IMG/VR virus record: IMGVR_UViG_2778261515_000019
Location: 1-38,450 of that record
Length of the DNA: 38,450 nt
Origin: a virus
Taxonomy: Duplodnaviria > Heunggongvirae > Uroviricota > Caudoviricetes
Direction: 5' to 3' (one strand)
Part shown: in pieces, positions 1 to 37,075 of the stretch
How the letters are laid out: the number at the start of each line of letters is the position of its first letter
Position numbering within the stretch: position 1 is the stretch's first letter
Program-made: the position numbers and the translations under genes
Notes under the pieces: model-generated
Told to the model about the DNA's origin: nothing
The model's input: the letters and a program-made list of their open reading frames with translations, nothing else
The model's database searches: none

Positions 1-351
1 ATGCGAGAGACAGTCGAAATTATGCGTTATCCCGTCACTCTTACACCCGCGCCGGAAGGCGGTTATATGGTTTCTTTTGTGGATATCCCTGAAGCGTTGA
101 CGCAGGGCGAAACTGTCGCTGAAGCGATGGAAGCGGCAAAAGATGCTTTACTGACCGCATTTGATTTTTATTTTGAAGATAACGAGCTTATCCCTTTACC
201 TTCGCCATTAAATAGTCACGATCACTTTATTGAAGTACCTTTGAGCGTCGCCTCTAAGGTATTGCTGTTAAATGCTTTTTTACAGTCAGAAATCACTCAG
301 CAAGAGTTAGCCAGGCGAATTGGCAAACCTAAATGTTGTAAACCCCAATAA
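1..351 (+). CDS. hicB: HicB-family antitoxin, C-terminally truncated (ORF ends inside predicted HTH, ...ITQQELARRIGKPK then 5 unrelated codons)
   Basis: N-terminal HicB/UPF0150-type sequence MRYPVTLTPAPEGGYMVSFVDIPEALTQGETVAEAMEAAKDAL; HTH-like ITQQELARRIG begins but the ORF stops 8 codons later; sequence character changes after ~337. Confidence 0.6.
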   Translation: MRETVEIMRYPVTLTPAPEGGYMVSFVDIPEALTQGETVAEAMEAAKDALLTAFDFYFEDNELIPLPSPLNSHDHFIEVPLSVASKVLLLNAFLQSEITQQELARRIGKPKCCKPQ

Positions 352-1490: not shown

Positions 1491-1775
1491 ATGGCTACTT
1501 TTATTACCTATGCTGTCATCATTACTATTCTGGCTGCTATCTCTGCTTATAAACTCGGAACCGAACCGAAAGAACGAGGCGAATTATTCTTAGGTGCGTT
1601 TGTTGCATTTGCTAGCCTTGCGTTAATTGTCGAAGGAATTTCTTATATTGTTGGCCTAGTTAGTATGACACTTTTTAACTTCCATCCAACTATTGCTATG
1701 CATTTGATGCTGACCGTACTTTGGGTATATTGCTTAATCGAATTTTTAACGTTTGTTTTCAAACAGACTAAATAA
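1491..1775 (+). CDS. Small integral membrane protein (about 3 predicted TM helices)
   Basis: RBS AAGAGG; hydrophobic segments ITYAVIITILAAISAY, LFLGAFVAFASLALIVEGI, LMLTVLWVYCLIEFLTFVF. Confidence 0.55.
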   Translation: MATFITYAVIITILAAISAYKLGTEPKERGELFLGAFVAFASLALIVEGISYIVGLVSMTLFNFHPTIAMHLMLTVLWVYCLIEFLTFVFKQTK

Positions 1776-1933
1776 TATTGTAATCTGCCTTTTCTCCTTA
1801 TGTGGTTTTAACAGGGAATTTTCGAAAGAGAGTTCCCGATTAAAAGCCATAAAACACATTCAGTACAGTGTTTTCATAGTCAGTGACTATACAACATAAA
1901 AACATAACAAGTATAGATTGAGTATTAATCCTC

Positions 1934-1959
1934 CCGCCCCGAAGGGGGCGGTTATTTTT
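1934..1959 (+). terminator. Rho-independent terminator
   Basis: CCGCCCC-GAAG-GGGGCGG stem-loop followed by TTATTTTT. Confidence 0.55.
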
Positions 1960-2036
1960 CTGGCTTTAAAGAATAATGTAGCATTATGTTCATTATAACC
2001 TCATCTTTGTTGTGCAAACCTAACCTAAACTTACTA

Positions 2037-2064
2037 GGGACTCTTCGGAGTCCCTTTTTTTTTT
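2037..2064. terminator. Terminator hairpin with UUCG-type tetraloop, abutting stop of minus-strand gene 2071..3072
   Basis: GGGACTC-TTCG-GAGTCCC followed by T10. Confidence 0.55.
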
Positions 2065-2070
2065 ATTGTC

Positions 2071-3072
2071 TTAAGCAACCAAACGAAGGGTAGGTCTTGC
2101 TTTCTTAATTTCATGTTTAATTTCTGGCTTAGTAAGTTTGCACAGTTCATCAATCGGCTGTAAGGTTGCTGGCGATCTACGTTGCGCGTACTTCTTATCT
2201 AAGCTAGCCCACAGATCCCGCGCTTCTTCTACTTCAACCAAAAGAATATTAGCTTGATGATAGAACTTAACCGCATCTTCCCACGTTTTAGCATTCTTGA
2301 TCTTAGTCTTCATGCTGTTAAATCGGCCTAGAAGCTGTTTTGCTTGTGCCTCTGCTTCTTTACGTGGGCGATCCCGTTCTTCCTGCTCTGCTTTCTCTTT
2401 GGCCTTAATCGCTTCCAGATTGGCTTTATATGCACAAACTTGATGGTCGTGGTCTTCAATACATGCTGGAACTTTAGGTTTTGTCACATAGAATTGAAAC
2501 ACAGTTTTTCCTAAATTGCCTTCCACATCGATAGGGAAGGTGTAGGATTTCATGTCGCTAAGTTCAACGCTGTTATCGTCGGTAGACACCAAAGCCAGAT
2601 TATAACGGCAATAGCTATTTTCTTTAATGCGGATCGTATAAACGTTTGATGTTTTCGGCGTACACTGAACAACATTACCAAAAGCGAAGACAGTAGCGAC
2701 ACCACCACGGCTAATCACAACCATAGCAACGCCTTTCTTCTCTTCATCGTAAAACCCACTAAGTTCATAACCAACCACAGAATAAACCAGACGATCACCA
2801 GTTTTATTGATGAAGCTGTTAATCATAGTATGTTCTTCTACCGTCAGCTTGATACCGTGTTTCATGATTTCTTTAATGACATTCTCAGAATCTTTAGCGC
2901 GGGGATTCTGAATAGAAAACAATTCCTGATAATAATCACCGCCGTTAAGATTATCGGTGAATTTGAAGTTTGCGGTAACTCCACCGTCAAAGGTGGAGGT
3001 CAGACGAACGTTTACCAGTGATTCAGTTTCTTCTTTGTTGAGTTTTTTGTTGTCGATTGCGTAAATGTTCAT
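2071..3072 (-). CDS. Hypothetical protein, 333 aa, globular N-terminal region plus charged C-terminal coiled-coil-like region
   Basis: Long ORF, 27-bp gap to upstream gene on same strand; KE-rich helical segment KEKAEQEERDRPRKEAEAQAKQ; no family recognised. Confidence 0.6.
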   Translation of the reverse strand: MNIYAIDNKKLNKEETESLVNVRLTSTFDGGVTANFKFTDNLNGGDYYQELFSIQNPRAKDSENVIKEIMKHGIKLTVEEHTMINSFINKTGDRLVYSVVGYELSGFYDEEKKGVAMVVISRGGVATVFAFGNVVQCTPKTSNVYTIRIKENSYCRYNLALVSTDDNSVELSDMKSYTFPIDVEGNLGKTVFQFYVTKPKVPACIEDHDHQVCAYKANLEAIKAKEKAEQEERDRPRKEAEAQAKQLLGRFNSMKTKIKNAKTWEDAVKFYHQANILLVEVEEARDLWASLDKKYAQRRSPATLQPIDELCKLTKPEIKHEIKKARPTLRLVA

Positions 3073-3099
3073 AGTAGTATTCCTCTTTTAAATTAAAAA

Positions 3100-4101
3100 T
3101 TAAGCTGCAAAATCAAGTAATTCGCGGTCCATCTCATCCATAGCCGGAATGGTTGGAACATATGGTTTATATCCTTCTTCTACATCAAGAAGGTTGTTTA
3201 AGCTGGCATCAGAAATATCACAAGAAACCACGGTTAACGCTGGTTTGATAATCGGCTGATCAACAGTAACCGCCTCCGGTGCTTCTTTTTCTTCTTTCGC
3301 TTCTTCCTGGGTAGCTGCCGGAACTACTGCTACCTTAACTTCCGGCGCTTTAACTTCTTTTGCTTCCAGTTCTTCTACACGGATTTCAAGAACTTCAATT
3401 TCTTTTTTCAGACTAATGTTTTCTTCCATCAGCATAGCGAATTTGCGTTCCATCTCAGCAAGACGTTGCTCAAAAGCACGATGCGCATCAGACAGAATCT
3501 GAATATCACGCTGCTGTAATTCTTCTTCGTAGTTGGAAACGGTTTTTTCTTTAGTGGTTTCTTTCCATACTGCCTTATCAACAGCGTTAACATTCAGTTT
3601 AGCTTTGTTGGAAACGAAGAAAGAAATATTGAATTTCTCACCGTGAGCACAATCAGACCATGCACCAACAACACTAGAAGCCAGAGCAAAGTTTTTAACT
3701 TTACCATTAACGAAACGGCCTTTAGCATCGCGGCGGGAAGCGTGGATCATGTTACCCCAGAGGCTACCAGCTTCATCTTGCAGGATAGACACTACATAGG
3801 ATTCGTCGCCGTTCTTGTAAGCGATAGCATATACTTCGCGCTGGTCTGGTTTAACCATTGCTTTCAAAGTAGCTTTCTTACGCTCTAAACCACGGTATTC
3901 TTTTTTCCAGTCGGAACCAGCATGATAGAGAGTGGTGTACAGAGAATCGATAGATTCTTCTTTATAAATATTAGTGCCAATAGTTAATTCGTCGGCTTCG
4001 TTGCTGCCATAGTTACGAATTTCGATATCTGCATCGTACTGATATTTTGCGGTGTCTGCGGTGTTGCTGTAAACGGTAATAGAGAAGTTATTTTGTTTCA
4101 T
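3100..4101 (-). CDS. Hypothetical protein, 333 aa, N-terminal globular domain, central coiled coil, acidic C-terminus
   Basis: RBS AGGAA upstream of ATG; heptad-like LAEMERKFAMLMEENISLKKEIEVLEIRVEELEAKE; same length as neighbour; no family recognised. Confidence 0.6.
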   Translation of the reverse strand: MKQNNFSITVYSNTADTAKYQYDADIEIRNYGSNEADELTIGTNIYKEESIDSLYTTLYHAGSDWKKEYRGLERKKATLKAMVKPDQREVYAIAYKNGDESYVVSILQDEAGSLWGNMIHASRRDAKGRFVNGKVKNFALASSVVGAWSDCAHGEKFNISFFVSNKAKLNVNAVDKAVWKETTKEKTVSNYEEELQQRDIQILSDAHRAFEQRLAEMERKFAMLMEENISLKKEIEVLEIRVEELEAKEVKAPEVKVAVVPAATQEEAKEEKEAPEAVTVDQPIIKPALTVVSCDISDASLNNLLDVEEGYKPYVPTIPAMDEMDRELLDFAA

Positions 4102-4202
4102 TGTAGTAATTCCTTATGTTAAGTAGAAGCCTCCTTGTTGCCGCAAGGGGGCTTTTTTATTGGTTAAAAGTTTCATAATGTAATTCTCAGTCAAAGTTGA
4201 TC

Positions 4203-4385
4203 TCACCAAACGGTAGCTTCAATCTTCACCTTGATTTCATATTTCTTTAAGAGTTTGTGGAAGGTTGATTTATCGATGCCTTCATTTTTAAACCACTCTT
4301 CAATCCTCACTCCCGGCGTTAGTTCAAAGTAGCGTTTTGCTTTTTCCAACATAATCTCGCGAGTAAATTTAACAGTTCTAGCCAT
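4203..4385 (-). CDS. Small HTH DNA-binding protein (60 aa from ATG at 4385; ORF track extends to 4421)
   Basis: RBS GAGGA 8 nt before ATG at 4385; HTH-like GIDKSTFHKLLKKYEI; first gene of minus-strand operon. Confidence 0.5.
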   Translation of the reverse strand: MARTVKFTREIMLEKAKRYFELTPGVRIEEWFKNEGIDKSTFHKLLKKYEIKVKIEATVW

Positions 4386-4484
4386 GTTACATCCTCTACA
4401 TTGTGGATTATTTTTTCTCATAAAAAGAGCTTTTCGCCCTTGATACTTCTATTTATAAAATGATTTTCAGAAAACCCTGTAAAA

Positions 4485-4506
4485 CCACTGTATATTCGAT
4501 CAGTGG
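4485..4506. promoter_or_regulatory. SOS-box-like palindrome (CTG-N10-CAG core) next to a promoter-like element for the minus-strand operon
   Basis: CCACTGTATATTCGATCAGTGG; left half ACTGTATAT matches the LexA consensus half-site as I recall it. Confidence 0.35.
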
Positions 4507-4569
4507 GAGCACGAATTGCTAAAGAGAAGATTAATAATTAATCAATTCGTGCAGTATTCAACCGAAAAA

Positions 4570-4591
4570 GCACTGTATATCTAACCAGTGC
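4570..4591. promoter_or_regulatory. Second SOS-box-like palindrome
   Basis: GCACTGTATATCTAACCAGTGC, same CACTG-N10-CAGTG architecture as 4485..4506. Confidence 0.3.
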
Positions 4592-4742
4592 CGTATTAAT
4601 TAACAGTGAATAAGGAGATTTTCAGAAGTGAACAATCATTTCTCACTTGTATTTAGTAGAGAGAAAATCTTGCTTATCATCTATATGGGGACTGTTTTGA
4701 AAATTTCAACCCCTACCAGTGAGAAAAAGTATAAAATAATCC

Positions 4743-4756
4743 TTGACAGTTGTCAA
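4743..4756. promoter_or_regulatory. Perfect 14-bp palindrome overlapping a -35-like hexamer
   Basis: TTGACAGTTGTCAA. Confidence 0.3.
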
Positions 4757-4957
4757 CACTCATGACCTAAGCGAGAAAAGGCTATCAAATTTTTTGTGCG
4801 AAAATGGCAAATAATGATTATCAACCTTTATAACCTATTATGGCACGGGGACCTTTTGACAATTTCTTTTAAATCATTAAGTTACAGCGATTTTTGATGA
4901 TTTTTTGGTTAAATAATATACAAGAATTTTCTATCAAAATATTTGAATGAATTTAAA

Positions 4958-5232
4958 GGTTTCCCCGCGATATCCCCACTTTAGAAGATGTATCCCCGTC
5001 ACCGTCCCCGCGTAAAATCCCCGTTTTGGAAGCAAAATCCCCCGGATTAGGGTAGTTTCCCCGCGATATCCCCGCGTAAAATCCCCGGTATTAGATGCGT
5101 ATTTTTATGTAAGTATATGATTTTAAATGCTTTCCCCGTGGTGTCCCCGTATCATCCCCACGTTATCCCCGACCTGTCCCCGTGGTATCCCTTCCCCGTC
5201 CCTTTCCCGTCCCCGTTTCAAAGTGGGGAAAC
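4958..5232. repeat. Iteron-like array of about 17 TCCCC(G) motifs, many spaced 10 to 11 bp
   Basis: Repeated units TTCCCCGCGATATCCCC and CCCCGCGTAAAATCCCC each occur twice; run TTTCCCCGTGGTGTCCCCGTATCATCCCCACGTTATCCCCGACCTGTCCCCGTGG; array bounded by GGTTTCCCC ... GGGGAAACC. Confidence 0.65.
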
Positions 5233-5269
5233 CAGTAATGACAGGGCTTAGAAGCGATCCAGACCTACA

Positions 5270-5310
5270 GACCAATATACCTACATACCATCAAACCAAT
5301 ATACCTACAA
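5270..5310. repeat. Direct repeat of 15 bp (ACCAATATACCTACA, two copies 11 bp apart)
   Basis: Exact duplication read directly. Confidence 0.45.
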
Positions 5311-5658
5311 AGATATTATGCGCCCTGCGGGGCGCGAGTAATCTGCTTCGAATCATTCAAGAAGGGATTTGTAATAGTGGTTACTAGATGATTCTAGATC
5401 ACTTTAATGATCATGAAAGGTATTGGTATCCCTTCGGGATTGCAACCTTCGGTTGCCAAATTGCTTCCTGATTATTATTTCTCCAAAAGAAAGATTCTTA
5501 TATTCTAAAGATACTTCTTCGTTTTGATGATGATTTAATCAAAATCTATGAAGGAGGCGAAGCCGACTGAATACCAATTCCTTTCAAATTAGACAAAAAT
5601 TTCTCGTTATAAATAATAGTGAACTTACTTTGATTCACTTTTTTAGAGGATTTCCACT

Positions 5659-6108
5659 ATGATCAATACTAAAACTCCTTTCATTCTTCTGGGTCTGAAC
5701 CATGATGATAATCTGGCTATGATGCATGTTTTCGCTAATCGTGGTTATAACATCATTCGTCATTCCGAAGACTCCAATTTCTCAACTGCTTTCTATGCTC
5801 TTAAACGTAATGGTCGCCCTACGGTGATCGTAGACTGCTTTACTGATGAAGGTCGTGAACAATACAACAACATTCCGGCAATTATTGTTCGTGATGACCT
5901 GCCGTTTGATGTTCGTGAATATGACGTTGATTTAGGCTCTTACTATGGGATCGCCGATCTTGACCAGATTATGGCTGATTATGGTAAACAACCCGCTAAG
6001 GAAGCCCAAGAACACGATGAAGACGACGAAGATGATGATTACACACCAATCGCGTTTTCTTCTCACAATAGCTTCTACGGCTACGATGAAGGCTTAGAAA
6101 TGCTGTAA
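5659..6108 (+). CDS. Hypothetical protein with strongly acidic C-terminal tract
   Basis: RBS GAGGA; 149 aa; EAQEHDEDDEDDDYTP acidic run. Confidence 0.55.
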   Translation: MINTKTPFILLGLNHDDNLAMMHVFANRGYNIIRHSEDSNFSTAFYALKRNGRPTVIVDCFTDEGREQYNNIPAIIVRDDLPFDVREYDVDLGSYYGIADLDQIMADYGKQPAKEAQEHDEDDEDDDYTPIAFSSHNSFYGYDEGLEML

Positions 6109-6130
6109 GTTAGGTCAACCCTTTGGCGTC

Positions 6131-6151
6131 TTGTCAAGGGGGTATTGACAA
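6131..6151. promoter_or_regulatory. Inverted repeat TTGTCAA-N7-TTGACAA upstream of gene 6230..6562, followed by further TTGACA-like hexamers
   Basis: TTGTCAAGGGGGTATTGACAA; additional TTGACAA at 6182. Confidence 0.3.
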
Positions 6152-6229
6152 AATTTTCTGGTTTTTTTATGATTATTGCACTTGACAATTTTGAACCTAT
6201 TTGACCTAGATTTGTAAAGAGGATGTAAC

Positions 6230-6562
6230 ATGAAAGAATTTACCATCACTAAATCCCTGTATGACTGGACTGTTAAAATCTCCAGCAAAACCGTTTCTGT
6301 AAGCCCTAGCCATGTAGAAAATGATTGGGGCGTATCCCGTGAAACTATCTCCCGTAGTATGCATGTTCCGTTTGATCTGATGTCCTTAACTGGTATTCAT
6401 GCAATGCTGGAAGTTCGCGAACAATTCGAAGCTGGTAATCACAATGCGACTCCAGTTAGCAATCACCTTCTTACTAATGAAGAACGTGAAATCATCGAAA
6501 ACTGGCGTTATGAATATGCGATTCCTTACTACGAAGAAGATCAGGTAGAAATCGATTGGTAA
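6230..6562 (+). CDS. Hypothetical protein, 110 aa
   Basis: RBS AGAGGA; clean ORF ending TAA; no family recognised. Confidence 0.55.
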   Translation: MKEFTITKSLYDWTVKISSKTVSVSPSHVENDWGVSRETISRSMHVPFDLMSLTGIHAMLEVREQFEAGNHNATPVSNHLLTNEEREIIENWRYEYAIPYYEEDQVEIDW

Positions 6563-6666
6563 TAAATTTCTATCATAAATAAAATTGTTCCGCGCGCCGT
6601 TGGCGTGTGGACAGTTAAAAACAGGAGGATTAAATCGCAAAACCGTTAATTAAGGGGAATCTTACT

Positions 6667-7518
6667 ATGAATACTGTTAAAACTATGAATACTGCACCGA
6701 CTTTCTTTGCTTCTCCGGTAGCTGCAAACGAAGATTATTCCGATGTTCGAATGACTTTGCGTGAAATTTCGGAATTTATTGGGGTACGTTTTGATAATAT
6801 CGAACGTAGTTTACATCGCCTTGTTAATCAAGGTGTTGTGAAACTCCCTCCAATGGAGGAAGTTAAAAACCACAGAAACCAGACAGTTAAAGATTATGTT
6901 TTTTCCGGTAAGCAAGGGCGATTGGATTCCATTGTTCTTATTGCTCAAAACGTACCTGAAATGACTCGTAAATTAGTAGAGCGTTGGGATTATCTCGAAA
7001 ATGAACTTTTAAAGAAAGAAGAAGAGAATAAAAGCCCGTTCCCAGATGCAAGCAAGATGACTAAGCTCGATTGGATGCGCGAAGCGGTTAAACTTGAAGA
7101 AGAAAAAGAACAACTGATTCAAGAAAAACAACAATTGGTTGATCTTCATATCCGTAAAGCCATCGACGCGCACAGTCTAACCCGCTTATTAGGCGAAAAA
7201 CGAGGCTCTACAAAGGTACAAATGATTCTGAAAGGGTTATGTACTGCTGGTGTTCTTGAGCGTCGTCTGGATGCTTCTGGTAAGCCTAACGGCTATGATC
7301 TGCTGCCTCCTGGCTATATGTTCGCTCGTATGTCGGCACACGGTCAGATCGAGTTCACTGCTGATGCTATTCCGCATCTCGTAAAACTCGGATTGCTTGA
7401 AGAAGAAAAGTCCGCAACTTTGAAATTGCCACAGCCGAATAACTCACGAGCAATCGTCAATAATACTGCTTTGCTGATTCGTCAGAATGCTGGATCACTG
7501 GAACACTTCGGACTGTGA
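6667..7518 (+). CDS. Phage regulatory protein (Rha/antirepressor-like N-terminal domain) with coiled-coil middle region
   Basis: RBS AAGGGGA; N-terminal MTLREISEFIGVRFDNIERSLHRLV resembles Rha-type winged-helix domain; ends with tandem stops TGATAA. Confidence 0.45.
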   Translation: MNTVKTMNTAPTFFASPVAANEDYSDVRMTLREISEFIGVRFDNIERSLHRLVNQGVVKLPPMEEVKNHRNQTVKDYVFSGKQGRLDSIVLIAQNVPEMTRKLVERWDYLENELLKKEEENKSPFPDASKMTKLDWMREAVKLEEEKEQLIQEKQQLVDLHIRKAIDAHSLTRLLGEKRGSTKVQMILKGLCTAGVLERRLDASGKPNGYDLLPPGYMFARMSAHGQIEFTADAIPHLVKLGLLEEEKSATLKLPQPNNSRAIVNNTALLIRQNAGSLEHFGL

Positions 7519-7526
7519 TAATTTTT

Positions 7527-7556
7527 GCCCCTGAATTTCAGGGGCTTTTTTGTTTT
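7527..7556 (+). terminator. Rho-independent terminator after the plus-strand early genes
   Basis: GCCCCTG-AATTT-CAGGGGC followed by TTTTTTGTTTT. Confidence 0.65.
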
Positions 7557-7563
7557 CTATAGG

Positions 7564-7596
7564 TATAAAAAAAGGCCAACCCCGAAGGATTGGCCT
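7564..7596 (-). terminator. Terminator for minus-strand gene 7603..7833
   Basis: AGGCCAA-CCCCGAAGGA-TTGGCCT with A-run on plus side (U-run in minus sense). Confidence 0.5.
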
Positions 7597-7602
7597 AGAG
7601 AA

Positions 7603-7833
7603 TCAAATTCCGGTAGCTTCTACCATTTCACCGTCAACCTGAACAAAGAATTTCAAATCAACTTTATGGAGTGATTTGTAGAATTGAGCAATTGAAATAC
7701 CGTGTTCACTCAATACTTGCTCTTTTTCAGCTTTACCTTTCGGTGCTTGATAGTACGCTTTTACAATCGCTGCCAGTTGTTCACGATCAAAACGGCAAGG
7801 ACGTCCGCGAGTAGCTTTAGTAGTCATAGTCAT
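7603..7833 (-). CDS. Small DNA-binding protein (AT-hook-like RGRP plus HTH)
   Basis: TRGRPCRF motif and HTH-like GISIAQFYKSLHK; RBS GGAGAAATGA context. Confidence 0.5.
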   Translation of the reverse strand: MTMTTKATRGRPCRFDREQLAAIVKAYYQAPKGKAEKEQVLSEHGISIAQFYKSLHKVDLKFFVQVDGEMVEATGI

Positions 7834-16364: not shown

Positions 16365-19300
16365 ATGCAGTCGATCCAATTTAAACGCACACAAACGGCT
16401 GGTAAAAAACCAACGCCGGAACAATTATCACAGGGTGAAATCGCCTTACAGTTGGCGGATCATGTGATTTACACCAAAGACAAAAATAATAACGTAGTCC
16501 AAATTAGTGTTTCTCCAGAAAAACACGCTGAACTGAATACGAAAGTAGACAATAACAAAACTAGCACTGACCGTGTTATTGCTTCCAACAAACAAGAAGC
16601 CGCTAATAATCTGGCTAGTGCTAAAGCTGAACTGAATCAGACTATTACCACGAAAGATACAGCGACCAATAAGCGCATTGATGCTACTAACACCACGGTT
16701 AGTAACTTAACCCAGACAGTCACGGCAAATAAAACCGATGCTGATACTAAGATCAATAACCTTACGGGGACAGTTGCATCTAACAAATCAGCTATAGAAA
16801 CTACTGTAGCAAATAATAAACGAGATGCGGACAATAAAATCGCAGCTTTAACCACGACGGTTAATGACAATAACACCGCGATTAACAACAAAGTTAATAC
16901 CACTAACACCAACGTTAGCAACTTAACTAAAACTGTTACTGCAAATAAAACCGATGCAGATAACAAAATTTCTAGCTTAACTAGCACGGTTGCAGCTAAC
17001 AAAACAGCGATTGAAAAGGTCGTTTCCGACAACAAGAAAGATGCTGATACGAAGATCACCAACTTAACCAACACTGTTAATAGCAACCACACCGCCATTA
17101 ACAACAAGGTTGACCAGAATAAATCAGCTACTGATTCAGCGATTGCAGCCGCTAACCGTCGAATTGATGGTATTGAAGGTAGCAACGATGCTCTTTACAT
17201 CAAGAAGAATACCAACACTAAGCACGGCGGGTATCTGTTAAGCAAGACAGCTAACTATCTGGAAGACCAGACATCACGAGATCTTAACTACTTTGGTGCT
17301 TTCCGTACCAATGGTCTTGATGGACTCATGGATCTAACTCTTAACGTTCCTCACTCTGCCGGTAAAGCTCACGGTCGCGGATTTACTTTCCGTTATGCGT
17401 CTGGTGGATCTCGTGTTGAAACCTATGGTTTTGATAGAGATGGACAGAAGAACTTTAGCTATAAGATGTATCACGAAGGTGATAAGCCGACTCCTGGCGA
17501 GATTGGTGCATACACCAAAGCCGAAGTTGATAAGATGTTTGTTAAAAACGTCGCTATGTCTGTTCCCAATTCTAGCGAAAACGTATCTGCATATTTCAAA
17601 TTGGCAACCGCAACAATTCCACAAAACGGGCGTAGTGTGTTTTTCCGTATTCATGGTGGTGATGGTTACAACGTTGCGGCATATGACCAAGTTGATGTAG
17701 TAGAAATTCTTCTCCGTAGTGGTAACGATAGACCTAAAGGACTTAACGTAGTTGCATATCGTCGAAATACCGTCAAAGATTTTGATGTATTTGCCGTCAA
17801 TACATCCGGTGATAACTATGACATTTATGTGAAATATCAGCGTTACACTGATAACGTTATTGTAGAATATGGGAAATCTGTTAATGTAAGTCTGACGGTT
17901 TATGATACGCCGGAAGCCACGTTAATTAAACCTTCTGTTGGTGTTATTGGCGGTCGCGCGGTAACTCTATTCAATACAGAAAACAAACGAGGTGTGTTGA
18001 GTTTTGACGATAACACACAAAATAGTTATGATATTGTTCACTTGAGTAATGATAGGGGTACTGGACGAAAATATATTCGTAAATTCCGTAGTAACTATAA
18101 TGAAATGATCTGGCACGAGACGGTTCAAGGCGCCAGCTATCGTCTGGCTACTGGTGCAACTGATGCTCAGGAGATTCTAACCGTTGAATCTGTTAGCTCA
18201 ATTGCTGGAACTCATAAAGGTAATATTACTTCTGGCCGTATGCTGTTAAATGGCGGTAGTAATGTTATTACCTTGCGGCGTCCTGCTGGTCAATCCAACC
18301 ATATTGCGTTTCAAGATAATCGGACTGGAGATATTACCCGTCAAGGGTGGATCGGTTATGCCAATGCTGATACTAACGTTTTTGAATGGTATAGTGATGT
18401 AGGTGGCAGTTCTATTCGTCAACATATCGACGGACAGATCGAACTTGCAACCGGTAACACAAAACGCGTTTATACTAACGCTCAATTCATCTCAATGAAT
18501 AGCGACGCCTACCGTATGCTCTATGGTAATTATGGTGCATTCTGGCGTAATGACGGCGTTAAAGTTTATCTTCTTTCTACTGCCGAAAATGATAAATTGG
18601 GCGGATGGAATACTTATCGTCCATTCATTTATGATTTAACTTCCGGTAACGTTCAATTAGGCGGTGATGGTAACGAAGATGCATTAACGTTAGAACGTGC
18701 TTCTCGTGCCGCTCGCTTTAGTAATGACGTTTACATTAAGAAAGGGCATTTGACTTTCGACGCTGGGCGATTAAATTCCCGCGATTACTTCCGGTTTAAC
18801 CATTGGGGTGATAGCAATAACGGTCGCGATAACATCCTACAGATTGAAGACAGTAAGGGCGCACATTTTACCACTGAACGTACTTTATCAACTGGTGCGA
18901 TTAAAACTAAATTCTTCGGTGATTTGGAATCTGCTGGTCAAATTAAATGGGGTAAAGGGACCGCCGCATCTACGTTTACTCTACGTGTATGGGGTAACGA
19001 TAGTCGTAAACAAATATTTGAATGTGGCGATGAAAGTGGGTGGCATTGGTATACCCAACGACCTGGCGGTCCAGGTACTACAGCAATAGAATTTGCTATC
19101 AACGGTACTGTTAAGCCTCAAGCAATTCACAGTGGCGGTAATATCACTATCAACGGTGCTGATATTGAGTTTCGTCGCAGTGGCAATAAGCATTTGTGGT
19201 TTAGAGATCCGAACGGTTTAGAGTTAGGCTTGATGTACTGCGATGATGCTGGTGCTATTCGCTTCCGTGGTCAGAAACAAGCCCAGGCGTGGAAATTTGC

Positions 19301-19979
19301 AGATAAAATGATCCAGTTGGAATCTGGCACTGTATCCGGTGGCGGTAATGGCCTGATTCGTGGTGAAGTTGCTGGCGGTAGTTGGGCTAGCTGGCGTGAC
19401 CGTGCTGCTGGCCTTATGGTTGGGTGTCCTCAATCCACCAACTCGGCACATAACGTATGGAAAGCGACGCATTGGGGTAAATATCACATTGCAGCAATGG
19501 CTGTACATGTTCCTGATGGTACTATTACCAATGCTTTAGCTCGCCTAAACGTTCATGACGCCAACTTTGACTTTAACGCTGCGGGTGATTTTAGCGCAAG
19601 TCGTAATGGTAGCTTTAACGATGTTTACATTCGTTCGGACCGTCGTCTGAAAGTTAATCTGGAAGAATTAAAAGATGATGCTTTAGAGAAAGTAAACTCC
19701 CTGAAAGTCTACTCATACGATAAAGTTAAGTCTCTTAAAGATCGTAGTGTGATTAAACGCGAAGTCGGTATTATTGCTCAGGATCTGGAAGAAGTATTGC
19801 CGGAAGCAGTAGGTATTCAATCCACCGAAGATCCAGAAAATCCAGAAGCAATTAAGACTATTTCTAACTCTGCTGTTAATGCCTTGATTATTAAAGCTAT
19901 TCAGGAAATGGACGCCAAATATCAAGCTAAGATTGAAGCATTGACTAAAGAGATTGCCGAACTCAAAGCAACTAAATAA
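16365..19979 (+). CDS. Long tail fiber with N-terminal Thr/Asn-rich tandem repeats and C-terminal intramolecular-chaperone-like domain
   Basis: 1204 aa; two ~72-aa repeats NxSNLTxTVTANKTDADxKI...; C-terminal SDRRLKVNLEEL...VYSYD...GIIAQDLEEVLPEAV resembles autoproteolytic chaperone domains of fiber/endosialidase proteins. Confidence 0.8.
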   Translation: MQSIQFKRTQTAGKKPTPEQLSQGEIALQLADHVIYTKDKNNNVVQISVSPEKHAELNTKVDNNKTSTDRVIASNKQEAANNLASAKAELNQTITTKDTATNKRIDATNTTVSNLTQTVTANKTDADTKINNLTGTVASNKSAIETTVANNKRDADNKIAALTTTVNDNNTAINNKVNTTNTNVSNLTKTVTANKTDADNKISSLTSTVAANKTAIEKVVSDNKKDADTKITNLTNTVNSNHTAINNKVDQNKSATDSAIAAANRRIDGIEGSNDALYIKKNTNTKHGGYLLSKTANYLEDQTSRDLNYFGAFRTNGLDGLMDLTLNVPHSAGKAHGRGFTFRYASGGSRVETYGFDRDGQKNFSYKMYHEGDKPTPGEIGAYTKAEVDKMFVKNVAMSVPNSSENVSAYFKLATATIPQNGRSVFFRIHGGDGYNVAAYDQVDVVEILLRSGNDRPKGLNVVAYRRNTVKDFDVFAVNTSGDNYDIYVKYQRYTDNVIVEYGKSVNVSLTVYDTPEATLIKPSVGVIGGRAVTLFNTENKRGVLSFDDNTQNSYDIVHLSNDRGTGRKYIRKFRSNYNEMIWHETVQGASYRLATGATDAQEILTVESVSSIAGTHKGNITSGRMLLNGGSNVITLRRPAGQSNHIAFQDNRTGDITRQGWIGYANADTNVFEWYSDVGGSSIRQHIDGQIELATGNTKRVYTNAQFISMNSDAYRMLYGNYGAFWRNDGVKVYLLSTAENDKLGGWNTYRPFIYDLTSGNVQLGGDGNEDALTLERASRAARFSNDVYIKKGHLTFDAGRLNSRDYFRFNHWGDSNNGRDNILQIEDSKGAHFTTERTLSTGAIKTKFFGDLESAGQIKWGKGTAASTFTLRVWGNDSRKQIFECGDESGWHWYTQRPGGPGTTAIEFAINGTVKPQAIHSGGNITINGADIEFRRSGNKHLWFRDPNGLELGLMYCDDAGAIRFRGQKQAQAWKFADKMIQLESGTVSGGGNGLIRGEVAGGSWASWRDRAAGLMVGCPQSTNSAHNVWKATHWGKYHIAAMAVHVPDGTITNALARLNVHDANFDFNAAGDFSASRNGSFNDVYIRSDRRLKVNLEELKDDALEKVNSLKVYSYDKVKSLKDRSVIKREVGIIAQDLEEVLPEAVGIQSTEDPENPEAIKTISNSAVNALIIKAIQEMDAKYQAKIEALTKEIAELKATK

Positions 19980-20678: not shown

Positions 20679-21185
20679 ATGGCGAATGTCGTTAATAAGC
20701 CCGGCTGGGTCGGGTCATCTGCTGTTTCTGTAACTAGTCAACGATGGATGACCGCAGCAATGAACGCATTAAAGGTTAGTCGCCCAGCTAACATGAGTGC
20801 GATGTGTGGTCGTGGTATGGATACGGTTGTAGCTACTGCTGCGTGGTCTACTTCATTGGGTAATAACTGGGGTGTAACTGCTTCAAACTATCCAGTAACT
20901 GACATGCGCGGTAAAGGATCTATGGAGAACCCCGAAAACGTTGGCGTAGGGCGTCTGATTGGCGTTATCGTTGGTCAATTCAATGGTGGTACTCCTACTA
21001 TGGCTGTATATCTCCAGAACGGTAGAGCGGGGAATATAACCGTTAATTTGGGTGGTGCTGCTGTCACTGTTCCTTATAACAGTATGCAAAGTGGTTTTCA
21101 TTACTACTGGTTAAGCAATCCTCCGGCTGCTTTCCTTACCAACATTAAGAAGACTGGCACTAAGCAGACTTTGAAAATCTCTTAA
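20679..21185 (+). CDS. Tail-associated protein of unknown role
   Basis: 168 aa; between tail tube and chaperone genes. Confidence 0.45.
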   Translation: MANVVNKPGWVGSSAVSVTSQRWMTAAMNALKVSRPANMSAMCGRGMDTVVATAAWSTSLGNNWGVTASNYPVTDMRGKGSMENPENVGVGRLIGVIVGQFNGGTPTMAVYLQNGRAGNITVNLGGAAVTVPYNSMQSGFHYYWLSNPPAAFLTNIKKTGTKQTLKIS

Positions 21186-31863: not shown

Positions 31864-31896
31864 AACAAAAGCGCCTCTAGTGGGCGCTTTTTTGTT
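31864..31896. terminator. Bidirectional terminator between convergent plus operon and helicase gene
   Basis: AAGCGCC-TCTAGTG-GGCGCTT flanked by A-run and T-run. Confidence 0.65.
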
Positions 31897-33394
31897 ATAT
31901 AGCAATTGTTTTAGTTGCATAGCTGAACTTGTCGGTTAGATAATAGCGGATTCTCTCAAGTGCATGTTTTACCGCATAATTTTTATGCTTGACTTTTCCG
32001 TTACGACCGAATATACACAGATGATCTATAAGATCCCAGACCGTTGCAATATCCTTAGAACCATGTTTACGCAATGCACGACCGATACTCTGACGAACGA
32101 TAGTTGATTCCTTCACGGGATGACCGAAAATAACATGGTGCAAGTTCTTAATTGAAACACCAGTAGAGAACACACCATAGGATGCAACGCAAATGATCCC
32201 GGTTTCCCCTTCCGCTAATTTCTTAAATTCATCACGTTCTTCTGTCTTAACTCCACCGTCAATATAATAAACCTTGTTGTGTACCTTCTGTAACGCATCA
32301 TACATAAGTTTTCCGTGCTTAGTATTGCGGAACATCAGGAATACGTTTTCGCCCTTCTTAGCGAGTTTTAGCGCCAAATTACAAGCAAACTTATTTCGTC
32401 GTGGGTTAGACGTAATATACTTGATCTCTTCCGCATATTCTCTCCCCTTAACCGCGCTACATTCCTCATCGGTATAACGAAGGAAAAGACAGTTAATTTT
32501 CAGTTTTGTCACCTGCCCTTCTTCCATCAGGCGGTCAATACTCACGATCTTAGAAATATCACCGAAAAGCCCGACATACTGCATTAAATGGCACTTTGAT
32601 TCTTTCGGGGAACCAGTCATGCCGATCTTAAATTGGCAATGATTCATTCCGTTAATGATATTGGTAATATTTTTGGCACTAGCCTTATGCGATTCATCAA
32701 CTATCAACATTCCATATTGTCGGAACCATTCAGGAGGCATCTTGCAAGCTGATTGCCAGGTACTAACCGTGATTAACCTGTCTCCCGGATGTTTCCCGCT
32801 ACCACTCATCATTGTATGAATTGCTTCATAAGGGAATAACCGATAATCGATGAAATCATCCCTCATTTGAACCACTAGCGATGTAGTAGGGACAATGATT
32901 AACACTTTTCCGGTGTAATGCTCTAAGTACCAGCGAGACAGCATACAAGCAATCAATGACTTTCCGGCACTGGTAGGAAGAACCAGCATTCTACGGCGAT
33001 TATGAATACCCTGAAAGACTGCCTCCCTTTGATACCAGTAAGGATTGATTTTATTGGAACCGGAATACACTTCTAGGGAATCAATCCATTCATTAATCGC
33101 GTCTTTGGTTACATCTTCCTTCTCAAGTAATCTGGGGTCAATCCAGACTGAATACCCCATATTTTTAACGAAGACACCCAACGTTTTTAATAGTCCAATT
33201 GGTAGGGTGTTTTCATGCGTAAACAGTCTTATTCGTCCATCCCAGCCAGAATACTTGTAACGGGGGCTAAACCTAGCCCCTTCAACCTCAAACGAGAAAT
33301 AATCTCTTAATTCCATTCCGATAGAAGGAGAGCAATCAACCTTAACGAAACTGTAATCTTGAAAATGAATTTTAATATCTTGCATTAGTTCCAC
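31895..33394 (-). CDS. SF2 DNA helicase, UvsW-like
   Basis: Motif I LPTSAGKS, motif II LIVDESH; N-terminal IKIHFQDYSFVKVDCSP...LRDYFSFEVEGARF...WDGRIRLF strongly resembles T4 UvsW as recalled. Confidence 0.8.
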   Translation of the reverse strand: MELMQDIKIHFQDYSFVKVDCSPSIGMELRDYFSFEVEGARFSPRYKYSGWDGRIRLFTHENTLPIGLLKTLGVFVKNMGYSVWIDPRLLEKEDVTKDAINEWIDSLEVYSGSNKINPYWYQREAVFQGIHNRRRMLVLPTSAGKSLIACMLSRWYLEHYTGKVLIIVPTTSLVVQMRDDFIDYRLFPYEAIHTMMSGSGKHPGDRLITVSTWQSACKMPPEWFRQYGMLIVDESHKASAKNITNIINGMNHCQFKIGMTGSPKESKCHLMQYVGLFGDISKIVSIDRLMEEGQVTKLKINCLFLRYTDEECSAVKGREYAEEIKYITSNPRRNKFACNLALKLAKKGENVFLMFRNTKHGKLMYDALQKVHNKVYYIDGGVKTEERDEFKKLAEGETGIICVASYGVFSTGVSIKNLHHVIFGHPVKESTIVRQSIGRALRKHGSKDIATVWDLIDHLCIFGRNGKVKHKNYAVKHALERIRYYLTDKFSYATKTIAI

Positions 33395-33682
33395 TCCACA
33401 CTTGCAATATTCTTTATATTGTTTAGTGATTTATTGCAGTAGTGGAATGTTTCAGTTTTGCCGTATTCAATCCCGCCTATACCCACATCCAGATAGAGAA
33501 TGCAATAGTAAGACAATTTTCTCTGATAAATAGTAGTGAACTTATTATTTTAGAGGAAACTACTATGAAACTTGCTTACGCTGCCTAATGCAATTAAATT
33601 AGGCTATGTCACAACAAACAGTTGATAAATAGCCATTTTTATAGGGGAGTATCAGAACTCCCCTACAAACTGTTATTTGCAG

Positions 33683-34177
33683 TTATCTATACTCATTTGG
33701 AATTTCGATATGAAGTGTCTCACACAATAACTTCACATCATGTGCATCATTTTCATCAAACTCGTATCCCAGATGGAACATTACTTGACTATATGGTTCA
33801 ATACAGGAAACCTCTATTTCCTCAATTCTTCCTTTACCCGAAAAAGTTTCTACCGGAAAACAATCCCCATCATAAAGAATTTCACCTTCGTCCGTATATT
33901 CAAAACAATGCAAATCAATAATTCTGTTTTTCAAATCTTCCCATACAGTATGGTTCAATGTTGTATATTCCATCTTAATCTCATAAAAGCCATTAGCTTT
34001 CATTATTTCTATAAAGTTCTGATAATCGTTCTTTTCTACAAAAATGTCAATATCATTATGGGCTCTTGACTGATATCCAAGAAGAGCATCTACACCCCAT
34101 CCACCATCAAGAAAGACTTTAATCTCCGCATCTATTGCAAATTGAAGAATCTGTTTTACATCTGTTATATTGACCAT
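33683..34177 (-). CDS. lnuC: Lincosamide nucleotidyltransferase, Lnu family (lnu(C)-like), 164 aa
   Basis: Motifs FLDGGWGVDALLG, HNDIDIFV, FHLGYEFDENDAHD typical of Lin/Lnu nucleotidyltransferases; 495-bp ORF from ATG at 34177 (track ORF extends to 34246). Confidence 0.7.
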   Translation of the reverse strand: MVNITDVKQILQFAIDAEIKVFLDGGWGVDALLGYQSRAHNDIDIFVEKNDYQNFIEIMKANGFYEIKMEYTTLNHTVWEDLKNRIIDLHCFEYTDEGEILYDGDCFPVETFSGKGRIEEIEVSCIEPYSQVMFHLGYEFDENDAHDVKLLCETLHIEIPNEYR

Positions 34178-34200
34178 CTTATCATCTCCACAAATTCTAA

Positions 34201-35244
34201 TTAGGCGACCAGAGGAACTGCTGGTCTGTTTGATAAATCTCTGCATTTAGCAGTTTTCAATGTTGCCAAAACAAAAGTTAAGAAGATGTTCCTTTTCTCC
34301 ATGTCGCTTTCTTTGGCGTAATTTACAAGGTTATTCCACACAAGATAGTTGTTCAGATACTTGGTAGAAACACCGTTAAAGCCACGCATAAACCTCTTTA
34401 GCTGGCTATGGTAGCTATTGATATGTTGGATATTATAAATGCCTTTCTTGGCTTTGCCAGTCTTTAACTGCACAAGGTCAATGCCATTGGCATTTGTAAA
34501 TCTCACATAGGAGTTCATCTTGTCCGTAACAAGAGTGGAATTGGTCTTAATCCTACCATCATAAATATGATGTAAATCTCTTGTAGAAACTCTACCAGTA
34601 TTCGTAATCTTGGAGATAGACAAGCCATTCCTATTAACCGCACAAGGAACACATACCTTTTCTTGGGACAAGCCTCTGATATGTGTAGAATGACCACGCT
34701 TATGAGCCTTGCGTGGCATAGCAAATGTCTTACTCTTGCTATGATTGCCCTTGTACGAGATGGCGAAAAAAGTTTCGTCAGCCTCAATAATGCCGTCAAG
34801 GGTAACATCGTCTGCCATATTCTGAAGTGCATCCAAAATCTTGTGTCTCCAAAGGAATGCGGTGTTTCTGTGAATCCCACAAGCAACAGCAGTCTTACGA
34901 ATGGATAAGCCATTCATCATACAATCAATGTACTGCTCCCACACGGACAAGTCTTTTCTTGTACCAGACACAATGGAGTTCGTAGCAATCACGAAGGACT
35001 TGCCACAATCCTTACATACATATCGCTGTGTGCCATCTTTACGATGACCATTGCGAACCACATGGATACAGCCACAAAGAGGGCATACACGACCATTTGC
35101 AAAGCGTTCCTTTGCTACGAAATCTTCAATATTCAAAGACTTTACAAAGGCAGGACTTAAAAGCATTGTTTTAAGGCTTTCCTGCTCTGCGACAGTCAAC
35201 TTACCGATAATATCTAATGCGTCTTTGATAGTAGGCATATCCAA
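34201..35244 (-). CDS. IS1595-family (ISXO2-like) DDE transposase
   Basis: 347 aa; N-terminal zinc-ribbon CPLCGC...CKDCGK; DDE core; directly upstream of lnu gene inside the IR-bounded element. Confidence 0.75.
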   Translation of the reverse strand: MDMPTIKDALDIIGKLTVAEQESLKTMLLSPAFVKSLNIEDFVAKERFANGRVCPLCGCIHVVRNGHRKDGTQRYVCKDCGKSFVIATNSIVSGTRKDLSVWEQYIDCMMNGLSIRKTAVACGIHRNTAFLWRHKILDALQNMADDVTLDGIIEADETFFAISYKGNHSKSKTFAMPRKAHKRGHSTHIRGLSQEKVCVPCAVNRNGLSISKITNTGRVSTRDLHHIYDGRIKTNSTLVTDKMNSYVRFTNANGIDLVQLKTGKAKKGIYNIQHINSYHSQLKRFMRGFNGVSTKYLNNYLVWNNLVNYAKESDMEKRNIFLTFVLATLKTAKCRDLSNRPAVPLVA

Positions 35245-35338
35245 TTACCTCCTTCGGTGGTACTGTTTCTTACTATTATTATACGCTATTTCTCGTCAAA
35301 AATCAACCATTTGTTGTGACAGAGCCTTAAATTAAAAA

Positions 35339-35356
35339 AGGGGTACGAATGTACCC
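35339..35356 (-). terminator. Terminator of the recombinase gene (the IS element sits in its A/T tract)
   Basis: GGGGTAC-GAAT-GTACCCC with A-run on plus side. Confidence 0.55.
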
Positions 35357-35395
35357 CTTAACTGTTTTAGCTCGTTATACGTCGATTTAGGCCGC

Positions 35396-37075
35396 TTAAA
35401 TTCCAAATTCCTGTAATGGACCTGGTATTTCCTCTTCTGGTTTCCAGTTCTTATCTGTCAGCATGTCTAAACATGGATGCAGAACAAGCCCGTTACTCTC
35501 CAGAATCTGCCTATCATTGATAGTCTTCAAATCAACGAAGATCCGGCCTTTCCTCGGTCCTCTTGAATTTTCTATTACAACTCTCTGGGTCTTGCCATCG
35601 ATGTATTCCAGTACAAACAAGTTTTTGTACTTGTCAATCCTGCTACACCCGATCCGTTTTAGAGCTTGCTTAATCTTAAACCGGACCTTAATGCGATCCT
35701 CATTATAAACATCTTCTAAATCAAATTCTGCGAGCTTCTCCCAGCCTTGAGAGTCCACAGAATACATTTCCTCTTCTGCCATCTTAATCTGATTGTAGAG
35801 TGTTTCACGCTCGCTATTGAGGGTAGTAATCTGGTCGGCTAACTCCTTCGTTGCTCCTGTCATAGCAGAAAGGGTAATCAGGTTATCAATCTTGCGTGAT
35901 ATTTCATCAATCTGTACTTTCAAAGCCGGAACCGGATTAGCCTTATCCTCAGCAATCCAGATTTTATCAGCCAGCAATTGCAATACAGCTTTCTCTAATT
36001 GATCACCTCGAAAACTCCAGTTTGTATGCACACATGCAATACGACTAGAGCGCATTGCATCGCATGAATAACGATATTGGTTAGGACGTTTGTTAGTTCC
36101 TTTCACCTTAACCATAGCGGAACCGCAATGTTCACATTTCAATAGACCAACACCACTAAGCAAGGGAATAGGTTTAACTTCTTCCTTGTCTCCATAGTTA
36201 CATGCTCTAACACCAATGCTTTTCTTAAGGTGATAAAACTCAGCGTCATCTAGCACACGAGGATAATAATCCTTTAACTCATACTTAACGCCATCTACAG
36301 AGATTTCCTTGATACCAATCAAAGCGCGGGTATGGAACAACCTTTCAATCATTGCCCGTGACCAGTTTGAATGCCTCTTGTGACTTGCGGCTGGTGGTGG
36401 TGTATATGTCGCGTTAAGGTGATCCAGTATTTCGGCGGTAGACCGTCCATTCCTGCGTAATTCCACAACCTCCTGAACAATAGGGAAGAAGACCGGATCG
36501 GGACACACATAACCGGAAGTGGTATCAGTCCACCACATATTCTTTCCAATTTCCTCGATTGCAACAGCCGGATTTTGTGGATTTTCTTGATGAGCTTTAA
36601 TCTTAATCAATGCGCTTGAGTTAGTACGATTGCGCTTAGTCTGACTTTCCTCGTTAGCTCTCGCAAACAACATGACACTCAACAGCAAATCAATAGGATT
36701 GGCATTAACCGATTCCTTGCTATAGACCTTACCATCCATGCCAGTTACGATAGTTATTCCCCTACGGATAATCGAGAGAAATAGCTCTTGTGCTTCAATG
36801 ATGGATTGGCGAGAGATACGGTCCAAGTTTTCCACAACCAGCCAGCTACCAACCGGAACAGATCGACCAATCTCATCCAGAAAGCGAGATAGTGCACCTG
36901 TTCTACTGTTAGCCCCTTTGAATGCAGATACACCAAAATCCTGATAGCTTGTAACTAGCTCAAGATCATATTTTGCGGCTATCTCTGCGGCTGTTCTCTT
37001 CTGGCGTTCATAAGAACTACCATCCGCTTGCTTCATAGACGAGAAGCGAATATACGAATACAGTTTAGTTTTCAT
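35396..37075 (-). CDS. Large serine recombinase (resolvase/integrase family)
   Basis: N-terminal catalytic motif YSYIRFSSMKQ...ERQ; central recombinase domain; zinc-ribbon Cys cluster CEHCGS...SCD...CVH; C-terminal coiled coil; ATG at 37075 (track ORF starts at TTG 37090). Confidence 0.8.
   Translation of the reverse strand: MKTKLYSYIRFSSMKQADGSSYERQKRTAAEIAAKYDLELVTSYQDFGVSAFKGANSRTGALSRFLDEIGRSVPVGSWLVVENLDRISRQSIIEAQELFLSIIRRGITIVTGMDGKVYSKESVNANPIDLLLSVMLFARANEESQTKRNRTNSSALIKIKAHQENPQNPAVAIEEIGKNMWWTDTTSGYVCPDPVFFPIVQEVVELRRNGRSTAEILDHLNATYTPPPAASHKRHSNWSRAMIERLFHTRALIGIKEISVDGVKYELKDYYPRVLDDAEFYHLKKSIGVRACNYGDKEEVKPIPLLSGVGLLKCEHCGSAMVKVKGTNKRPNQYRYSCDAMRSSRIACVHTNWSFRGDQLEKAVLQLLADKIWIAEDKANPVPALKVQIDEISRKIDNLITLSAMTGATKELADQITTLNSERETLYNQIKMAEEEMYSVDSQGWEKLAEFDLEDVYNEDRIKVRFKIKQALKRIGCSRIDKYKNLFVLEYIDGKTQRVVIENSRGPRKGRIFVDLKTINDRQILESNGLVLHPCLDMLTDKNWKPEEEIPGPLQEFGI

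Follow-up and report, generated by a model that had tools for sequence, protein, structure and literature searches.

The subject of this analysis is a 38,450-nucleotide stretch of DNA catalogued as a virus of the Caudoviricetes (IMG/VR record IMGVR_UViG_2778261515_000019, positions 1 to 38,450; hereafter the window), and in particular a segment which we regard, with very little doubt, as an intact copy of the known mobile element ISSag10/MTnSag1 with its lincosamide-resistance gene lnu(C), transposed into a non-coding gap of an Escherichia coli prophage integrated in hicB. A first reading of the letters alone (the original prediction) had proposed an IS1595-family transposon with an lnu(C)-like gene inserted in a phage genome. 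The analysis described below bears out the core of that proposal and amends its boundaries and its account of the carrier.

Identity and boundaries of the element

The complete element (ISSag10/MTnSag1, also designated tISSag10) occupies window positions 33602..35326 on the minus strand and shows full-length near-identity to annotated copies. Over 100% of its length it is 99.7-99.9% identical to ten annotated plasmid copies of ISSag10/lnu(C), whose hosts are Ligilactobacillus salivarius, Glaesserella parasuis, Streptococcus salivarius, Cetobacterium somerae and Enterococcus faecalis, and copies held by two deposited 'phage' records from Streptococcus gallolyticus are 99.3% identical to it. In a multiple alignment the window copy differs by 1 nt from the Ligilactobacillus plasmid copy (L013), and the Streptococcus salivarius copy is 1724 bp long, being without one homopolymer A at window position 35298. 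The original prediction had correctly recognized the presence of the element but gave it 1724 bp, the length of the original MTnSag1/ISSag10; counted from 33602 to 35326, it measures 1725 bp. The proposed identity with MTnSag1/ISSag10 is upheld both by this DNA identity of 99.7-99.9% and by exact protein matches (see below). Comparison with the type copy from S. agalactiae UCN36 was indirect, through sequences annotated as ISSag10. The gene content is likewise that of ISSag10/MTnSag1, i.e., about 1.7 kb holding only a transposase gene and lnu(C) in the same orientation. Judged by its sequence, the window element belongs to ISSag10/MTnSag1, of which it is in effect a copy; every defining feature that can be read from sequence is present, and nothing found contradicts this identity.

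The element is bounded by 25-bp terminal inverted repeats, at 33602..33626 for the lnu(C) end and 35302..35326 for the transposase end, which read GGCTATGTCACAACAAACAGTTGAT and, in reverse complement, GGCTCTGTCACAACAAATGGTTGAT. They are identical at 22/25 positions, in agreement with the imperfect inverted repeats originally described. This terminal pair is the longest inverted repeat reported by the repeat finder (I1), and the end sequences are unchanged across all the copies in the multiple alignment. Immediately outside the repeats lie the two copies of a perfect 8-bp target-site duplication, TTAAATTA, the left one at 33594..33601 and the right one at 35327..35334; the perfect repeat had been noticed from the outset, with its right copy misplaced to 35326-35333. 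A script count found TTAAATTA three times on the plus strand of the 38.4-kb window (at 3088 and as the two flanking copies), and the chance of an 8/8 match falling exactly at both inverted-repeat tips, as estimated from base composition, is ~0.26^8, or ~2e-5. Hence, both hallmarks of the IS1595 family, terminal inverted repeats and an 8-bp target-site duplication, are found here. The description of the segment as AT-rich holds only mildly, the GC content of the element being 38.4% as against 41.9% for the remainder of the window; lnu(C) by itself has 33.3%.

Other copies of the element are each flanked by a perfect 8-bp duplication of their own, namely TATAATTT, ATTAAGAA, TTAGGGTA and TTCTGTTT in four plasmid/phage copies, and TTGTATTT, AATCGTAA and TAAAGAAA in three complete copies on IMG/VR contigs. 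Additionally, 22 IMG/VR contigs include the left end of the element, and the 8-mers flanking it there are mostly very AT-rich. The AT-rich target TTAAATTA fits this apparent preference, given that the targets of the four plasmid/phage copies and the 22 IMG/VR contigs are nearly all strongly AT-rich.

Genes and signals inside the element

The gene lnu(C) (33683..34177, minus strand) codes for a lincosamide O-nucleotidyltransferase of 164 aa. The protein matches the NCBIfam model NF000141 (linco_LnuC) over its full length (1-164/164) with 380.8 bits against a cut-off of 300, and it is an exact match to the database entry 'MULTISPECIES: lincosamide nucleotidyltransferase Lnu(C)'. With the models for Lnu(D) and Lnu(P) it reached 201.2 and 194.8 bits, respectively, both below their own cut-offs, and the 164-aa Lnu-family enzyme of the original prediction can be named as Lnu(C) proper rather than merely 'lnu(C)-like'. 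In Pfam terms the protein belongs to the Aminoglyc_resit nucleotidyltransferase family, and the nearest solved structures are the lincosamide resistance proteins 4fo1 and 4wh5 (E 1e-14). In the AMRFinderPlus annotation of PLSDB, the Ligilactobacillus gene, which is nucleotide-identical to the window lnu(C), is assigned 98.17% identity to the reference Lnu(C), a value that implies three substitutions. Enzymes of the Lnu group inactivate lincosamides through O-nucleotidylation. By homology to the solved resistance proteins, Lnu(C) is predicted to confer lincomycin resistance in this manner, placing a nucleotidyl (AMP) group onto a hydroxyl of the drug.

Upstream of lnu(C) lies the gene for the ISSag10 transposase (34201..35238, minus strand), a 345-aa protein combining an IS1595-family DDE domain with an N-terminal zinc ribbon of the CxxC...CxxC type, whose cysteines read CPLC...CKDC in the translation. 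Elements of the IS1595 family transpose by way of such a DDE transposase. The assignment to the IS1595 type, already made in the first reading, receives 196.5 bits (5e-58) from NCBIfam NF033547 (IS1595 transposase) against a cut-off of 75, and agrees with the two Pfam matches above the gathering score, PF12762 (DDE_Tnp_IS1595) and PF12760 (Zn_ribbon_IS1595). Further, NF050000 (IS1/IS1595 Zn domain) matches with 52.1 bits against a cut-off of 28, and the protein is exactly that of an entry named ISSag10 family transposase. The exact Lnu(C) and transposase proteins each occur on at least 1000 contigs. The reading frames and the ends described above all indicate an element with an intact transposase gene, intact termini and an intact lnu(C), which may still be capable of transposition.

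The transposase and lnu(C) genes are separated by 23 nt and are co-oriented with the flanking phage genes for the recombinase and helicase. A promoter-like site, TTGATT-17-TATAAT, with a 10/12 match to the consensus, lies upstream of the transposase gene and partly within the inverted repeat (35278..35306, minus strand), and the two genes are probably co-transcribed from this promoter at the transposase end (35306->35278). Against expression from this site it has to be set that a promoter scan of the region returned no more sites than did shuffled sequences. Directly 3' of the lnu(C) stop codon is a hairpin with a 13-bp stem (33638..33669, minus strand), detected both by the repeat finder (I21) and by folding. 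The 76-nt stretch 33615-33690 that contains it folds at -23.2 kcal/mol (z = -4.66), with 0/200 shuffles being as stable. This hairpin may end or stabilize the transcript; a terminator role is uncertain because it has no U-tract.

Insertion site and evidence for transposition

The element is inserted in what is, in its empty form, a 277-bp non-coding gap without an annotated gene. On one side of it lies the gene for a large serine recombinase or integrase (559 aa; 35396..37075, minus strand; Pfam Resolvase, Recombinase and Zn_ribbon_recom), and on the other, directly downstream of the insertion, that for a UvsW-type helicase (496 aa; 31895..33385, minus strand; Pfam UvsW_N, ResIII and Helicase_C), whose start codon is 216 bp away. 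As the original prediction had it, the insertion between these two genes lies just past the terminator-like hairpin of the recombinase gene (35338..35359, minus strand), the T-tail of which, TTTTAATTTA, enters the target 8-mer. On the minus strand, the target context reads GGGGTAC-ATTC-GTACCCC, then TTTTT, then TAATTTAA. Because the 8-mer was duplicated, the tail of the recombinase terminator is unchanged by the insertion.

The strongest evidence for transposition comes from relatives of the prophage that have the site empty. In nine such relatives (L001, L002, L003, L006-L010 and L012) the BLAST alignments to the window end at 33601 and restart at 35327, with 8 bp of the subject covered by both alignments, so that each relative has a single 8-mer where the window has two. 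One of these, L002, reads ...GCAATTAAATTAAAAAAGGGG... with one 8-mer at the empty site, and its sequence ...CTGCCTAATGCAATTAAATTAAAAAAGGGGTACGAATGTACCCC... equals that of the window minus the element and one 8-mer exactly. Likewise, a 656-bp query in which the flanks were joined around a single 8-mer was matched across the junction by four complete E. coli genomes, with identities of 97-99%. The presence of the flanking repeat in relatives without the element, which the original prediction had named as speaking against it, is thereby answered, these relatives having one 8-mer each. As the alignments of the relatives break exactly at 33601/35327 with a single 8-mer in every case, the insertion is firmly identified as a transposition event by way of a staggered 8-bp cut, and not as an assembly error.

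The original prediction had further held that the insertion is probably recent. This is favored by the perfect duplication, by the single nucleotide that separates the element from the Ligilactobacillus copy, and by the existence of an empty site beside an identical recombinase protein. In public E. coli/Shigella assemblies, the exact recombinase protein is found on empty-site contigs, on element contigs and on one with other cargo.

The course of events can be envisaged as follows. The ISSag10 DDE transposase would have recognized the terminal repeats and carried the element into the AT-rich 8-mer, which was then duplicated in the repair of the staggered cut. No phage gene was interrupted, and the duplication restored the tail of the recombinase terminator. 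The element is now inherited with the prophage, and would travel along if the prophage were induced and packaged.

The gap between the helicase and recombinase genes has the appearance of a slot for variable cargo. It is empty, at 277 bp, in some relatives (L002 3076-3352), and holds ISSag10-lnu(C) in the window (33386-35395). In many E. coli prophages it is occupied by genes for a 391-aa GIY-YIG/T5orf172 protein with a CapR domain and a 185-189-aa protein (L011 7755-9653; L020 1586-3557), the latter also showing a CapR domain in the L011 copy. These GIY-YIG/CapR genes could be a defense or homing cassette. The occupied slot measures 2010 bp here as against 1971 bp with the alternative cargo in natural relatives; the sizes being similar, the insertion need not exceed the packaging capacity of the capsid. 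In E. coli ETEC1738, the closest empty-site relative with a complete genome, an IS1 interrupts the UvsW-type helicase gene (L001 19011-19708), which implies that insertion sequences have repeatedly landed in or close to this region in members of the prophage family.

The carrier prophage

The original prediction had spoken of a phage genome. That the DNA is of phage type stands, but it is a prophage integrated in the E. coli chromosome, since window positions 1-333 correspond to the 5' part of the host gene hicB on the attL side (1..333, plus strand; Pfam HicB_lk_antitox). This part is 99.7% identical over 333 bp to hicB of E. coli K-12, and the 3' part of the gene is seen in relatives beyond the opposite prophage end. 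The attL site, the attR site as read in relatives and the K-12 attB share the common core AAACCTAAA. The right end of the window (38450), with ~39-51 bp more in L017, constitutes the other prophage end region. Lysogeny splits the hicB gene of the hicAB toxin-antitoxin pair. The window can on these grounds be identified as a ~38-kb siphovirus-type prophage integrated in an E. coli/Shigella chromosome, and not as a sequenced virion genome.

The structural genes comprise those for the small and large terminase subunits, portal, a fused protease-capsid protein, tail tube, tape measure, distal tail protein and fibers; further genes code for a lambda J-like tip protein, an M15 endolysin and the above-mentioned 559-aa recombinase. 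Thus, the structural, lysis and integration modules expected of a temperate phage are apparently complete and are accompanied by attachment sites in a host gene. Related prophages occur in many complete E. coli genomes, where 70-86% of the first 25 kb is matched at 89-94% identity. A search of plasmids with the prophage arm gave no match, and a phage-plasmid carrier is therefore unlikely.

The first BLAST hits, to gp37 and uvsW of Krischvirus, had raised the alternative of a T4-like lytic carrier, which was rejected in view of the lambdoid siphovirus-type structural module and the chromosomal integration. These hits have a counterpart in the tail-fiber region of the prophage, which is otherwise of the lambdoid type: a T-even-type long tail fiber distal subunit (gp37) and a gp38 adhesin are encoded at 16365-19979 and 20679-21185, and over positions 17232-19910 the nucleotide identity to the gp37 long tail fiber gene of the lytic, RB49-like Krischvirus phages is 86%. 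This suggests that a temperate siphovirus and lytic myoviruses have recently exchanged modules for receptor binding. The helicase gene (31895-33385), at 81% nucleotide identity to Krischvirus uvsW, is another T-even-like gene in this temperate prophage. The region from 1.4 to 8.5 kb was mostly unannotatable with the libraries used. It includes two adjacent ORFs of 333 aa (2071-4101, minus strand), which had neither a PHROG match at E <= 1e-5 nor a match to Pfam above the gathering score; one of them shows a sub-threshold match to CDK5RAP3 (E 0.003).

Occurrence and lineages of the element-bearing prophage

The junctions seen in the window recur in L004, L005, L017, L018 and L019, which derive from independent NCBI and Logan assemblies. 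Of these, L005 (Logan assembly of SRR10586223) shares 9055 bp with the window at 100% identity and L004 (GCA_015095235.1) is 99.97% identical over 6951 bp including the element, the sequence of the element itself being identical in all three. Further, all 24 of the 24 contigs read that have the exact helicase allele of the window carry the element beside it. GCA_050581365.1 and GCA_012607795.1 are further assemblies of carrier strains. These contigs were represented by three places, which resolve into two sequence types. Within the major type (L017, L019 and the window), a stretch of 21.5 kb that takes in the host flank is 100% identical.

The minor type (L018, equivalent to L004) departs from the major type in a markedly uneven manner. 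Compared with L017, it has 55 mismatches in approximately the first 4.9 kb, i.e., the host flank (~1.1%), and zero mismatches from ~5 kb to 11.5 kb, in the prophage arm; relative to the window, there are 2 mismatches in the 6951-bp element-bearing arm (~0.03%). The shift from ~1% to ~0.03% divergence falls within ~80 bp of the right end of the window and ~120 bp from the attR core. The tail genes of the minor type are 97.3% identical to those of the window. The minor type thus shows mosaicism around a shared right arm. Either a second lineage was lysogenized, the phage later recombining with a resident relative, or else a piece of the chromosome was exchanged; under both scenarios, the element-bearing arm has moved horizontally at least once. 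The minor type also has an extra gene for a 345-aa protein with a faint DUF723 match, right after the endolysin gene (L018 11878-12915, GCA_015095235.1).

Across complete RefSeq genomes of E. coli, the element was found in 0/5,426, and all 56 matches to the query spanning it cover the flanks only.

Mobility, phenotype and alternative explanations

The prophage might, as the original prediction envisaged, be packaged and transduced together with lnu(C) after induction. The nearly identical element-bearing arm in a host background that is ~1% different lends this indirect support. In its strongest form, this reading holds that the hicB-integrating prophage is a live temperate phage, which has already moved ISSag10-lnu(C) between E. 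coli/Shigella lineages by lysogeny. We consider it unlikely in this form. Were it true, this would rank among the few well-documented cases in which a functional enterobacterial phage encodes an acquired resistance gene, as distinct from generalized transduction or a mis-called prophage.

Alternatively, the element is genuine and the prophage is defective or non-inducible, with lnu(C) being a chromosomal passenger that spreads vertically, by transposition or by segment recombination, outside virions. We place this explanation a little short of an even chance. Several observations weigh on its side and against a transducible phage. An attP reconstructed from attL, attR and the K-12 attB, which contains ATTAGGGAAACCTAAATGTTGTAAACC, had no match in IMG/VR or the JGI metagenomes, where exact-match patterns may miss diverged relatives. 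In the same two collections, a 35-mer of the exact phage/IS junction was likewise not found, meaning that the insertion has been seen only in isolate or Logan assemblies. Among the isolated phages of INPHARED, none resembles the prophage beyond the tail-fiber and uvsW segments. The carriers are mostly of one identical sequence type, and the number of major-type contigs may reflect one clone that was sequenced repeatedly. Further, the IS1 in the helicase gene of ETEC1738 indicates that members of this family decay, and the presence of the shared arm in a second chromosomal background is equally explicable by homologous recombination. Against transducible resistance it also weighs that any phenotype that E. 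coli derives from lnu(C) is expected to be small, leaving possibly little selectable effect. E. coli is intrinsically poorly susceptible to lincosamides on account of its outer membrane and efflux, and lnu(C) is therefore unlikely to alter phenotypes relevant to therapy in the hosts within reach of this phage. On the other hand, the gene set is apparently complete, from the terminases through to the integrase; the occurrence of the family at 89-94% identity across many E. coli lineages suggests active phages; and the switch in divergence near the attR core is what lysogenization would give.

That the junction is an assembly chimera or contamination, i.e., Gram-positive ISSag10 reads mis-joined into an E. 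coli contig, might be suspected from the fact that the element is best known from Firmicutes and from its absence from the complete RefSeq E. coli genomes. This explanation is effectively refuted by the perfect 8-bp duplication with a single copy at empty sites, by identical junctions in independent NCBI and Logan assemblies in two prophage/host backgrounds, and by the occurrence of the element in the Gram-negative Glaesserella, Campylobacter and Cetobacterium. Equally improbable, and with nothing for it beyond its formal possibility, is that the segment is ancestral to the prophage family and was lost from the relatives by precise deletion. Nine relatives of unequal divergence would each have had to lose it so that exactly one 8-mer stayed behind, which is implausible; the element is found in unrelated replicons with its own duplication each time; and it is 99.9% identical to the Ligilactobacillus copy, as against differences of 1-6% among relatives in the flanking prophage DNA.

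Novelty and significance

Verified acquired resistance genes in phage genomes are uncommon, and many of the reported cases are errors of annotation or binning. The present case offers a clean reference example, with junctions exact to the base pair, empty-site controls and several independent assemblies, and it documents that a resistance transposon known chiefly from Gram-positive bacteria has reached the E. coli chromosome, which none of the 5,426 complete RefSeq genomes shows. The element and its gene had already been fully described, and the DNA and proteins are already public, the latter correctly named as Lnu(C) and ISSag10 family transposase; what is new is the location in an E. coli prophage. 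Our literature searches, whose coverage was incomplete and which constitute weak evidence of absence, returned no report of lnu(C)/IS1595 in an E. coli prophage. The practical weight of the finding is limited, as lincosamides are not used against E. coli, and the host range of the phage presumably extends to enterobacteria only, in which lnu(C) adds little.

Comparison with known systems

The closest known system is MTnSag1/ISSag10 of Streptococcus agalactiae UCN36 (Achard et al. 2005; Achard & Leclercq 2007, via PMC5704250), which the window copy matches in size, ends and genes, and from which it differs in its context, a prophage in the E. coli chromosome, and in measuring 1725 bp. MTnSag1 is described as a 1.7-kb element with an IS1595-type DDE transposase, 25-bp terminal repeats, 8-bp duplications, AT-rich targets and lnu(C) as its sole cargo (PMC5704250). 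A circular intermediate has been observed in E. coli, excision has been suggested to be possibly replicative, giving a double-strand circular copy, and an oriT within the resistance gene permits mobilization by Tn916 (PMC5704250). Given the near-identity of the two, mobilization through oriT/Tn916 and the circular intermediate are likely to be retained in the window copy.

The same architecture is shared by tISCpe8 of Clostridium perfringens, which carries lnu(P) (Lyras et al. 2009, cited in PMC5704250) and joins an IS1595-family transposase to one lincosamide nucleotidyltransferase gene between 25-bp inverted repeats with 8-bp duplications (PMC5704250). It is a separate element with a separate gene, the Lnu(P) model being the third-best NCBIfam match of the window protein, at 194.8 bits against a cut-off of 300.

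With regard to viruses, lnuC was the commonest resistance gene of single-genus prophages in a survey of human-gut prophages (PMC10841027). ISSag10/lnu(C) is present in several viral-catalogued sequences, namely the Streptococcus phages phi-SgaBSJ27_rum and phi-SgaBSJ31_rum, the satellite prophages Javan285 and Javan415, and 22 IMG/VR contigs. The four deposited viral records name streptococcal hosts, in contrast to the enterobacterial siphovirus-type prophage that carries the window copy. In the 110-kb 'phage' records, tet(O) and a plasmid-type replication protein are found as well, which makes their viral nature doubtful. In phi-SgaBSJ27_rum (MN270258.1, L015; positions 1-7735), ISSag10-lnu(C) adjoins tet(O), an AraC regulator and a plasmid-type replication initiation protein; this record may include a non-phage mobile element and is therefore a weak precedent for phage-borne lnu(C).

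A precedent in Gram-negative bacteria is the copy on the Glaesserella parasuis plasmid pHN61, which is 99.8% identical over the full 1725 bp and has its own duplication, TTCTGTTT. Its carrier is a small mobilizable plasmid, whereas that of the window copy is a prophage. The pHN61 copy shows that the element was already circulating in Gram-negative bacteria of livestock. Hence, both the Gram-negative and the viral-catalogued presence of the element are precedented, by Glaesserella pHN61 and by the above viral records, respectively.

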